From contig QBZD01000002.1 of the NCBI GenBank assembly GCA_003282485.1, forward strand, positions 4,769 to 68,768: a stretch of 64,000 bases of DNA. The letters are read 5' to 3'. Below, piece by piece: positions 58,637 through 60,980 of the stretch. The DNA is from Pelagibacteraceae bacterium AG-333-C14 (GTDB lineage: Bacteria; Pseudomonadota; Alphaproteobacteria; Pelagibacterales; AG-422-B15). Positions within the stretch are counted from its first letter, which is position 1; the number at the start of each line of letters is the position of its first letter. A program made the position numbers and the translations under genes. The notes under the pieces are model-generated. The model was not told the origin of the DNA. It saw only the letters and a list, made by a program, of their open reading frames with translations, and made no database searches.

Positions 58637-60679
58637 CTAATTTTTATATTTTTCTAAACAGAGTAAAAAAGCATTATCGAGACAACTTTCCTCTAAAGCA
58701 TTTAATCGTCCACTCTTACCGGCATGACCACCTACTAAATTCATCTTCATTAATATTGGATTATCTGAGGTACTATTTTCTCTTAGTTTTGGGACATATT
58801 TGGCTGGTTCGTAATACTGAACTTGAGAGTCATAAAGGCTGGATGTCACTAAGACAGCAGGATAATTTGACGGTCTAATATTATCGTAGGGGGAGTAACT
58901 TTTAATATAATTATACTCATCCTCATTCGCTGGATTACCCCATTCTTTATATTCAAAAGTAGTTAGGGGAATCGTTTCATCTGACATCGTAGTCACTACA
59001 TCTACAAAAGGAACTGCTGCTATAATGCCTGTATATAATTCTGGCTCCATATTAATGATTGCTCCCATTAAAAGACCGCCAGCACTTCCACCCATTGCAT
59101 ATATATTTTTAGAATTGCCATACCCTTGATTGACTAGTGATTTTGTTGCATCAATAAAATCATAAAATGTATTTTTTTTATTAAAGATTTTACCATCATC
59201 GTACCACTGCCGACCCATCTCAGATCCACCTCTGATATTGGCGACAGCAAATACGAAACCCCGATTGAGTAGGGGTAAGATGGACGTTCTAAAAGCTGCA
59301 TCAATTATAATGCCATAAGAACCATAGCCATAAATAAGGATAGGAGCTTGAGATAAGTTAGTCCCTCTTTTATATACTAGTGATACAGGAACTTTTGTAT
59401 CATCACGGGCAGTAATTTTAAGTCTTTCCACCTCATATAGATTTTCATCGTAATTGTTTACAGGCTGCTGCCATGCCAACTCAATCCTACCTGACTCAAT
59501 ATCCTCTTTGAATATTGAACTAGGTTTCTTTGGACTCGAATACCCATAGTAAAATTCAGTATCAAGGTACTCATTATTGGTTGCTAAATAGCAGGAAAAG
59601 GCAGGGTCAGTAAATTCAATATAATTCCTATCGAGTGTTTCTCTGTTAATTTTTACTATCTTGGGCAGTCCGTCTTCTCTTATCTCTAAATAAAGATATT
59701 GAGGAAAAGTGACAAAATCTTCAATTAAAATAGCATCATCATGCTCAACAACAGTTTGCCAACTATTAAAACTATTAATTTGATCTATGGTAAATTTTAA
59801 AATTGAGAAATTTTTTTTATTTTCTGCATTACTGCTGACGTAGAAACACCCTGGTGTGTCTTCAATGGAATAAAGATGCTTATCGGAACGTTTGAGTACA
59901 CAAAACGGTTGACCGATTTCATCATCTAGATCAAGTAACCATGTCTCTGAAGACTCAGTTTTACTAGTATAGATATTTAAATATTTTTTTGTACGTGATT
60001 CATAAATATGAAGATGAAACTCTGAATCATTTTCCTCATAGATAAGAACATCTTCTTTTGGATCAGTTCCAATTTTGTGTTTAAAAACCTTATTTTCTAT
60101 CAAAGTAACAGGATCTTTTTGAGCATAGTAGAATGAAGTATTCTTCTTGTCCCAAACAATGCTCCCAGAGCTCCTCTCAACTTTACTGTCTATAATTTTG
60201 CTGGTCGTTAGATCTTTAACTTTTATGTTGTATTCTCTTCGACCCGATAGATCTTCTGCATAAGCAATTAAAAGATTATTTGGCGATGGCGTTATTGATG
60301 TAATATTTATATAATCTAAGCCCTCAGCCAGCGCATTTACATCAATAACTAACTCTTTATTTCCATTGAGCTCTCGATAGTATGTTTTATATTGCTGTTC
60401 TGAGTTAATTTCAGAGTAATACAGATAATCTCCGTATTTAATTTTTATTGAAACCTCTTTTGGTGGTATGAAACTAACTAATTCATCATAAATTTCTTTA
60501 CGGCAATCATTATTTTTTTCAAACCAATCTTCTAAGTAATTATTTTCTTCCTCTAAATAAGAAATAATTTCTGGATCTTTACGCGTATCATCTCTGAGCC
60601 AGTAATAATTATCAACACGTTCTTCGCCATGGGCAATATGAATTTTAGGAATCTTTTTTGGTTGTGGAGGTCTCATCAT
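58637..60679 (-). CDS. ptrB: oligopeptidase B (protease II), S9 prolyl oligopeptidase family
   Basis: 680 aa. The N-terminus 'HGEERVDNYYWLRDD' is the PtrB hallmark. Also a beta-propeller region, 'GGSAGGLLMG' (nucleophile Ser), and downstream Asp/His segments ('YDSQV', 'GGHAG'). Confidence 0.85.
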   Translation of the reverse strand: MMRPPQPKKIPKIHIAHGEERVDNYYWLRDDTRKDPEIISYLEEENNYLEDWFEKNNDCRKEIYDELVSFIPPKEVSIKIKYGDYLYYSEINSEQQYKTYYRELNGNKELVIDVNALAEGLDYINITSITPSPNNLLIAYAEDLSGRREYNIKVKDLTTSKIIDSKVERSSGSIVWDKKNTSFYYAQKDPVTLIENKVFKHKIGTDPKEDVLIYEENDSEFHLHIYESRTKKYLNIYTSKTESSETWLLDLDDEIGQPFCVLKRSDKHLYSIEDTPGCFYVSSNAENKKNFSILKFTIDQINSFNSWQTVVEHDDAILIEDFVTFPQYLYLEIREDGLPKIVKINRETLDRNYIEFTDPAFSCYLATNNEYLDTEFYYGYSSPKKPSSIFKEDIESGRIELAWQQPVNNYDENLYEVERLKITARDDTKVPVSLVYKRGTNLSQAPILIYGYGSYGIIIDAAFRTSILPLLNRGFVFAVANIRGGSEMGRQWYDDGKIFNKKNTFYDFIDATKSLVNQGYGNSKNIYAMGGSAGGLLMGAIINMEPELYTGIIAAVPFVDVVTTMSDETIPLTTFEYKEWGNPANEDEYNYIKSYSPYDNIRPSNYPAVLVTSSLYDSQVQYYEPAKYVPKLRENSTSDNPILMKMNLVGGHAGKSGRLNALEESCLDNAFLLCLEKYKN

Positions 60680-60717
60680 TGTCTAATATATTACTGATAT
60701 TTTTTTCTTCAATCTTG

Positions 60718-60791
60718 TGGTGCCCCATACCGGTTACGCTCCGGTGGCTGACCATTACCAATGGCCTGCTTTACTATTAAGCGAATGGGGC
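60718..60791 (-). tRNA. tRNA-Thr(GGU)-like cloverleaf with a non-canonical T-loop and encoded CCA (possible atypical tRNA, pseudo-tRNA or tRNA-like leader)
   Basis: Hand fold of the - strand, 74 nt. Acceptor GCCCCAU/AUGGGGC is 7 perfect bp. U8. D-stem GCUU/AAGC with loop AAUAGUA. Anticodon stem GGCCA/UGGUC has one G-U, with loop UUGGUAA (U33, anticodon GGU, A37). Variable loop AGCC. T-stem ACCGG/CCGGU (G53-C61). T-loop is AGCGUAA rather than UUCRANY. Discriminator A, then CCA. G1-C72, C2-G71 and G35U36 fit known ThrRS identity elements. G19, T54, psi55 and A58 are not canonical. Confidence 0.5.
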
Positions 60792-60980
60792 AGAGTTTTT
60801 ACGCTTCATATCAATAACTTATAAAGTAGATTTTGTAAATTTTTGGAGAATACCATGAGGCCAATCTACTTTTTAATCGGGGACAATTGTTTTCACAAAA
60901 TATGCTATGGTAATTGCTATTTGATAGGTTAAGTGAGTATATTTTCATGTATAATAAACAATATTTAAGCGGGAGATAAT

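Follow-up and report, generated by a model that had tools for sequence, protein, structure and literature searches.

We identified in the SAR11 bacterium AG-333-C14 a gene that is very probably (we estimate a probability of about 0.88) the working elongator tRNA-Thr(GGU) of this organism, which would read the codons ACC and ACU with an elbow built from unusual bases. At the corner where the D and T loops meet, A18, A54, G55 and U58 stand in place of G18, U54, U55 and A58, and the pair G19-C56 is kept. Few bases in biology are as conserved as G18, T54, Psi55 and A58, which RNase P, TruB, TrmA, the ribosome and T-box RNAs recognize. We treat G18, U54, U55 and A58 here as conserved tRNA features; none is a formal criterion of the Rfam tRNA family RF00005.

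The assignment builds on the observed structure of the gene, its conservation and covariation, the uniqueness of its anticodon and the coupling of its two loops. A first-pass annotation of the window (the whole analysed stretch of 64,000 nt) had left three options for this element. The one supported is that of a functional tRNA of unusual form in which the 54-58 pair is swapped, in view of its standing as sole tRNA-Thr(GGU), the compensatory changes in its stems and the coupled set of loop bases.

Structure and detection of the gene

The gene has an acceptor stem of 7 bp, a D stem of 4 bp, an anticodon stem of 5 bp with one G-U pair and a T stem of 5 bp closed by G53-C61; U8 is present and the variable loop has 4 nt (Table 1). 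The near-perfect 7/4/5/5 cloverleaf with a single G-U pair that the first-pass annotation described is seen in the sequence and is also the minimum free energy (MFE) fold of the 74-nt element, at -28.5 kcal/mol and z = -2.6 against shuffled sequences. The anticodon GGU, U33, A37, G53-C61, the discriminator A and the CCA end that it listed are all found in the sequence, which likewise agrees with its T loop AGCGUAA, that is, A54, G55 and U58. Its reading of the D loop, with G18 followed by U at position 19, has to be corrected: the Rfam consensus and the AAUGGUA form of the loop that occurs in the family both give A18 and G19, so that the loop is numbered A14 A15 U16 A18 G19 U20 A21. Since G19 is retained, pairing with C56 is still possible.

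Table 1 Features of the tRNA-Thr(GGU) locus in the window (positions in the window, strand, and basis of each assignment)
Feature	Position	Strand	Basis
tRNA-Thr(GGU) gene, 74 nt including encoded CCA	60718..60791	-	sequence, MFE fold, RF00005 score, covariation
D loop AAUAGUA; A for G18 at 60775, G19 at 60774	60772..60778	-	Rfam consensus and type B alignment
Anticodon loop UUGGUAA; GGU at 60759-60757, U33, A37	60755..60761	-	sequence; invariant in 21 aligned family genes
T loop AGCGUAA (A54 G55 C56 G57 U58 A59 A60)	60734..60740	-	sequence; invariant in all type A genes
Encoded 3′ CCA, preceded by discriminator A73	60718..60720	-	sequence
Spacer between tRNA and ptrB, 38 nt	60680..60717	-	no terminator; one weak promoter-like match
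ptrB-like oligopeptidase gene, 680 aa, downstream	58637..60679	-	Pfam Peptidase_S9_N 1e-83, Peptidase_S9 3e-57
Divergent intergenic region, 189 nt, from tRNA to sarcosine-oxidase-like operon	60792..60980	.	ORF list

G1-C72, C2-G71, G35 and U36 are identity elements for threonyl-tRNA synthetase (ThrRS) in Escherichia coli, and all of them are present. With permissive filters, RF00005 matched the gene with 47.6 bits (E = 2.4e-9; gathering score 29) and aligned end to end over model positions 1-71; in a whole-genome search the gene ranked 32nd of 33 tRNA matches. An Rfam scan of the whole window with default filters and the gathering score missed it, so the gene is visible to Rfam with permissive filters only. 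ARAGORN called no tRNA at 60718-60791, neither in the window nor in the whole genome. Of the tools suggested for checking the cloverleaf, ARAGORN was silent and Rfam scored well above its threshold. Score and structure place the element in the tRNA family RF00005, and the anticodon and acceptor stem mark it as a tRNA for threonine.

The tRNA set of AG-333-C14

The AG-333-C14 assembly comprises 1.19 Mb in 42 contigs with 33% G+C, has an estimated completeness of 84.5% and carries a permuted tmRNA. ARAGORN found 31 tRNAs in it, and the sole threonine tRNA among them has the anticodon UGU. In each of these 31 genes the T loop follows UUCRANN, the D loop contains GG and the CCA end is encoded; the odd elbow is confined to tRNA-Thr(GGU). 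At 84.5% completeness, a second Thr(GGU) gene on missing DNA is possible for this assembly.

The anticodon GGU reads ACC and ACU, which account for 9.6% and 38.7% of the threonine codons in 538 long open reading frames (ORFs), together 48%. For Ala, Pro and Leu(CUN), ARAGORN detected a U34 tRNA only in each case; given these boxes, a GGU tRNA is in principle not strictly needed for decoding.

Looking at the enzymes that act on the T loop, we found a TruB gene in AG-333-C14. No TrmA-type (PF05958) or TrmFO (TIGR00137) gene was detected in AG-333-C14, in three near-complete genomes of the family or in one complete genome of the sister family. In the genomes searched (AG-333-C14, G071, G024, G042 and G030), the sole TrmFO-like matches were ORFs of 624-632 aa scoring about 55 bits, which are probably MnmG. 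A further family genome, G050, gave a partial match in the PF05958/TIGR00137 search that covered the C-terminal part of the model only. As a hint, the absence of TrmA-type and TrmFO genes raises the possibility that U54 may be unmodified in SAR11.

Conservation and uniqueness in the SAR11 family

We searched all 60 genomes of the same GTDB family, representing four genera, by BLAST and then with a covariance model built from the family genes. The variant tRNA-Thr(GGU) was present as a single copy in 50 of the 60; the ten genomes that lack it are all incomplete (54-90%). A canonical Thr(GGU) was found by the covariance model in none of the 60, including those that are 96-100% complete, and the next-best matches, where checked, were the canonical Thr(UGU) followed by Asn or Val. 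The check for another tRNA-Thr(GGU) proposed by the first-pass annotation therefore found no second gene in either AG-333-C14 or the 60 family genomes.

Four distinct versions of the gene exist in the family, and all 21 stem pairs are paired in every one of them. Both sides have changed in 11 of the 21 pairs, and one-sided changes or breaks occur in none. As a control, we slid the pairing partner by 1-3 columns, upon which 24-44% of the positions were paired compared with 100% in the real alignment. The anticodon loop, G1-C72, C2-G71, the discriminator and the CCA end are invariant across 21 aligned family genes. The comparison with relatives that had been proposed thus did reveal compensatory changes, in more than half of the pairs, and by this covariation the stems are under selection.

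The variant elbow recurs with its two loops coupled

Within AG-333-C14's family, the joint pattern of the D loop AAUAGUA and the T loop AGCGUAA corresponds to Thr(GGU), in 38 of 59 genomes. The same two loops, letter for letter, recur in the sister SAR11 family on tRNA-Val(GAC), and Thr(GGU) is canonical there. Among 401 Pelagibacterales genomes, 278 contain the joint pattern, and a control with the reversed pattern gave a single match. In the main genus of the sister family the pattern marks Val(GAC) (237/274 genomes with a match), and a subset of this genus also has tRNA-His(GUG) with the same elbow, for example the match at G028:C1:205078-205123.

Nearly all joint-pattern matches listed for the GTDB species representatives belong to SAR11. 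The matches listed from unrelated assemblies include valid cloverleafs for Ile(GAU), Gly(UCC) and Asp(GUC), and two other alphaproteobacterial genomes among the matches listed have a type A Thr(GGU) (see below) with quite different stems. One tRNA-Gly(UCC) with the variant elbow lies on a tiny, AT-rich contig of 682 bp in the Herbiconiux daphne assembly (L142); the presence of this contig in an actinobacterial assembly is probably due to contamination from another organism or a phage.

The elbow is also frequent among viral contigs. We scanned IMG/VR for the four combinations of canonical and variant loops, taking as valid cloverleafs those that passed a strict four-stem check and treating counts from the loop-pattern scans as lower bounds. 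Variant D with variant T loop yielded at least 126 matches with at least 83 valid cloverleafs, and canonical D (AAUGGUA) with canonical T loop at least 131 matches with at least 79 valid cloverleafs. The mixed combinations gave no valid cloverleaf: canonical D (AAUGGUA) with variant T loop (AGCGUAA) occurred in six matches, a complete count, and variant D (AAUAGUA) with canonical T loop had none among the at least 112 matches listed. The two loops are strictly coupled among the viral matches listed, and position 18 hence changes together with positions 54, 55 and 58.

At least 16 anticodons are represented among the first 80 viral variant-elbow loci listed, including a CUA suppressor. This phage tRNA, on IMGVR_UViG_3300033463_000022 (L281), forms a valid cloverleaf with the variant elbow, and its anticodon CUA is of the amber-suppressor type. 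For the AAUAGUA/AGCGUAA elbow we found no description in the literature, including the review PMC7609411, which is not proof of absence.

Two types of tRNA-Thr(GGU) at one locus

The family genes fall into two types. Type A, with the D loop AAUAGUA and the T loop AGCGUAA, occurs in 39 genomes from all four genera. Type B, found in 11 family genomes, has the D loop AAUGGUA and the T loop GUCAGUA (G54 U55 C56 A57 G58). Both types together were found in none of the family genomes. Over the tRNA region the two are 67-69% identical, with differences at about 23 of the 74 positions of the tRNA itself. In phage tRNAs the type B T loop is found as well and is rarer, with six valid cases among 119 matches listed.

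The DNA of AG-333-C14 (type A1) and that of G010 (type B) are 94% identical over 1.6 kb from the tRNA into ptrB, and the aligned part of their ptrB proteins shows 97% identity. The homology extends from ptrB to the CCA end and is gone upstream of the tRNA, where each tRNA type has a flank of its own. In a tree of ptrB, types A1, A2 and B share one tight unresolved clade, and A2 appears in the outgroup too. These patterns suggest that the tRNA gene and its upstream DNA were swapped as a unit, rather than having diverged in place.

It is conceivable, if on balance unlikely, that the AAUAGUA/AGCGUAA elbow and the rarer GUCAGUA T loop are alternative solutions for the tRNA corner that spread by horizontal transfer between SAR11 and phages or mobile elements. 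Their advantage would be that they escape enzymes made for the canonical T loop, such as T-loop nucleases and TruB-type or U54-directed enzymes, and the alleles A1, A2 and B would have been swapped together with their upstream flank. Such an exchange of whole alleles would explain why the ptrB DNA is 94% identical and the tRNAs only 68%.

Neighbourhood of the gene

The divergent intergenic region separates the tRNA from genes on the + strand with the Pfam domains DAO, SoxD and Fer2_4. On the other side, counting from the CCA end to the ATG of ptrB at 60679 reproduces the 38 nt reported in the first-pass annotation, and its statement that no terminator precedes ptrB holds as well, as the spacer contains no terminator-like site. 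A promoter-like sequence, TTGAAG-16-TATATT at 60712-60685 (- strand), lies in the spacer and has its end 6 nt before the start codon of ptrB; were it a true promoter, the ptrB mRNA would be nearly leaderless. Promoter matches in the region were no commoner than in shuffled sequences, and none was located upstream of the tRNA, whose promoter presumably lies in the divergent intergenic region. With no terminator and no convincing promoter found, co-transcription of the tRNA with ptrB is possible in AG-333-C14.

Among the genomes examined, ptrB lies downstream of the tRNA in nine, namely AG-333-C14 and eight others. In most type A2 genomes, the CCA end of the tRNA is 3 nt away from the stop codon of an M50-protease fusion gene, and ptrB is absent there; in the AG-333-C14 window, the M50 fusion gene is located on the far side of ptrB from the tRNA. 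Seen across these genomes, ptrB is polymorphic, being either present between the M50 fusion gene and the tRNA or missing. Further relatives have other neighbours beside tRNA-Thr(GGU), and the upstream sarcosine-oxidase flank is common only to AG-333-C14 and G070 among the loci compared.

In two relatives, a repeat of the 5′ half of the tRNA lies at a distance upstream of the intact gene. G003 has a 38-nt exact repeat of tRNA positions 1-38 located 11.6 kb upstream, and G013 a 93-nt repeat, composed of the same 38 nt and upstream flank, located 9.5 kb upstream. The insert in G013 (L224, G013:C5, 3979-13589) encodes a ResIII/DEAD helicase, a CHAT-domain protein of 1,066 aa and a protein that matches sigma-70 region 4 weakly and below threshold; it also has several ORFs without a family match, with three ORFs of 131-231 aa lacking a Pfam family. 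No integrase was found in it by Pfam. By its content, the insert looks like a defence island. Judging from these gene orders, synteny breaks at the tRNA-Thr(GGU) locus, which in relatives is also a site of insertion, and the tRNA has stayed intact.

AG-333-C14 itself has no partial copies of the tRNA of 15 nt or longer, from either the 5′ or the 3′ half, anywhere in the assembled genome; the direct repeat of the 3′ half that had been proposed as an island boundary is thus absent. Considered as a phage attachment site, the 30-nt core of the tRNA 5′ half occurs on no IMG/VR viral contig, and tRNA-Thr(GGU) had no blastn match in 50,697 phage records.

Alternative explanations

A specialised tRNA outside ordinary translation, one that supplies an amino acid to a non-ribosomal reaction or has a regulatory function, seems very improbable to us. 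The idea has some appeal because positions 18, 54 and 55 are also altered in the non-proteinogenic tRNA-Gly of staphylococci, and because U34 tRNAs can in principle cover whole four-codon boxes in AG-333-C14. Against it, the gene has no canonical Thr(GGU) alongside in any of the 60 family genomes, whereas the non-proteinogenic tRNAs known to us are extra copies. The same elbow on tRNA-Val(GAC) and tRNA-His(GUG) of the sister family and on at least 16 phage isoacceptors argues for a general structural variant and not for one special job. We also hold it very improbable that the element lacks a decoding role and is a tRNA-shaped processing signal or 5′ leader of ptrB, as the first-pass annotation had offered as its third option, or mainly an attachment site for mobile elements. 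Its position 38 nt upstream on the same strand, with a terminator-free spacer, would suit a leader, but in most relatives the tRNA abuts the M50 stop codon or other genes and has no ptrB beside it, and the leader option is not supported. An attachment site would be in keeping with the synteny break point and with the 5′-half repeats that flank inserts in two relatives. Yet neither role would need an invariant anticodon loop, the ThrRS determinants, the CCA end and four co-varying stems, and tRNA genes used as attachment sites are normally working tRNAs as well.

The remaining option, a decaying pseudo-tRNA at an old island site, fared differently in its two parts. Decay might be read from the silence of ARAGORN and from the four missing near-universal bases, but every stem pair is intact in each of the four versions, all four genera share identical loops and no other Thr(GGU) gene was found in the family. 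Because the stems remain paired and 11 pairs are compensated, which is the pattern expected of a working tRNA, we consider a decaying pseudogene excluded for practical purposes. The island part of this option has more to it, as the locus is a synteny break point and the 5′-half repeats bound inserts of 9.5 and 11.6 kb in two relatives.

Proposed function of the rebuilt elbow

As a working tRNA-Thr(GGU), the gene would be expressed, its product charged and used in decoding, and its elbow held by new contacts, as far as this can be predicted from sequence. Transcription would start in the intergenic region by the sarcosine-oxidase operon and possibly include ptrB. The 5′ end would be cut by RNase P and the 3′ end trimmed to the encoded CCA. 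Threonyl-tRNA synthetase would charge the tRNA via G1-C72, C2-G71, G35 and U36, to judge from the intact set.

In tRNA, the outer face of the elbow is the pair G19-C56, against which RNase P RNA, the ribosomal L1 stalk and T-box RNAs stack. As this outer pair is unchanged, the L shape and the docking surface would be kept, and RNase P processing and contacts with the ribosome should work as usual. Inside the elbow, base chemistry suggests that the reverse-Hoogsteen pair U54-A58 is probably re-made as A54-U58. In the canonical elbow, G18 donates hydrogen bonds to O4 of Psi55; this contact is probably re-made with the roles reversed, as A18-G55. It also follows from the bases that G55 is not convertible to pseudouridine and that A54 cannot be methylated to T.

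Relation to known tRNAs

Compared with canonical tRNA-Thr(GGU), as represented by E. coli thrT/thrV and the sister SAR11 family, the variant shares the cloverleaf, the anticodon GGU, G1-C72 and C2-G71, along with U8, A14, A21, U33, A37, G53-C61, G19-C56, the discriminator A and the CCA end. It differs in having A18, A54, G55 and U58 in place of G, U, U and A and a D loop of only 7 nt; the sister-family Thr(GGU) has an ordinary UUCGAUU T loop. The relation to the sister-family Val(GAC) and His(GUG) and the phage tRNAs is the reverse: AAUAGUA, AGCGUAA and G53-C61 are identical, whereas the anticodons are others and the stem sequences unrelated. In contrast to tRNA-Thr(GGU), the sister-family Val genes are called by ARAGORN.

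There are partial precedents for single bases of the elbow. Eukaryotic initiator tRNA-Met has A54 and A60, and the T-loop motifs of rRNA and RNase P RNA have G at their second position, so that both A54 and a G at the equivalent of position 55 occur elsewhere. To our knowledge, none of these combines A54 with U58 and A18. In known T-loops the 1-5 pair is U-A, and in the SAR11 variant it would be A-U.

A larger group of tRNAs does without the elbow formed by G18 G19 and T-Psi-C, among them tRNAPyl, many mitochondrial tRNAs and the staphylococcal non-proteinogenic tRNA-Gly (PMC7609411; PMC4574755, the latter of which discusses the staphylococcal tRNA-Gly isoacceptors). They resemble our case in that near-universal loop bases are replaced and the tRNA still works. 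Those tRNAs, however, lose G19-C56 or the contact between the loops, or have short arms, whereas the SAR11 Thr(GGU) has normal arms, G19-C56 and a fixed set of replacements, and is the sole isoacceptor.

The textbook rule of G18, T54, Psi55 and A58 thus appears to be broken in a tRNA that probably works. With a coupled elbow set in the apparent sole tRNA for two common codons and in many phage tRNAs, the variant amounts to a natural experiment that shows which elbow contacts are truly indispensable, and it does so in SAR11, which ranks among the most abundant groups of bacteria in the ocean. A candidate for a culturable model is the cultured sister genus, whose tRNA-Val(GAC) has the same elbow, with named Pelagibacter isolates among the matches; work on structure and modification looks feasible there. 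For annotation, the finding means that SAR11 genomes can appear to be without tRNA-Thr(GGU), as ARAGORN and filtered Rfam searches skip the gene. Recognizing the locus as a hot spot of recombination and insertion also aids the reading of SAR11 genome variability.

A fragment of tRNA-Phe on the same contig

About 20.6 kb past the end of the window, a tRNA match of 34.6 bits (G000:C2:89376-89430, + strand) corresponds to a 5′ fragment, about 45 nt long, of tRNA-Phe(GAA), whose intact gene (C2:90504-90579) follows 1.1 kb downstream. By analogy with the similar layout of the 5′-half repeats at the tRNA-Thr of relatives, this fragment may be the remnant of an insertion.
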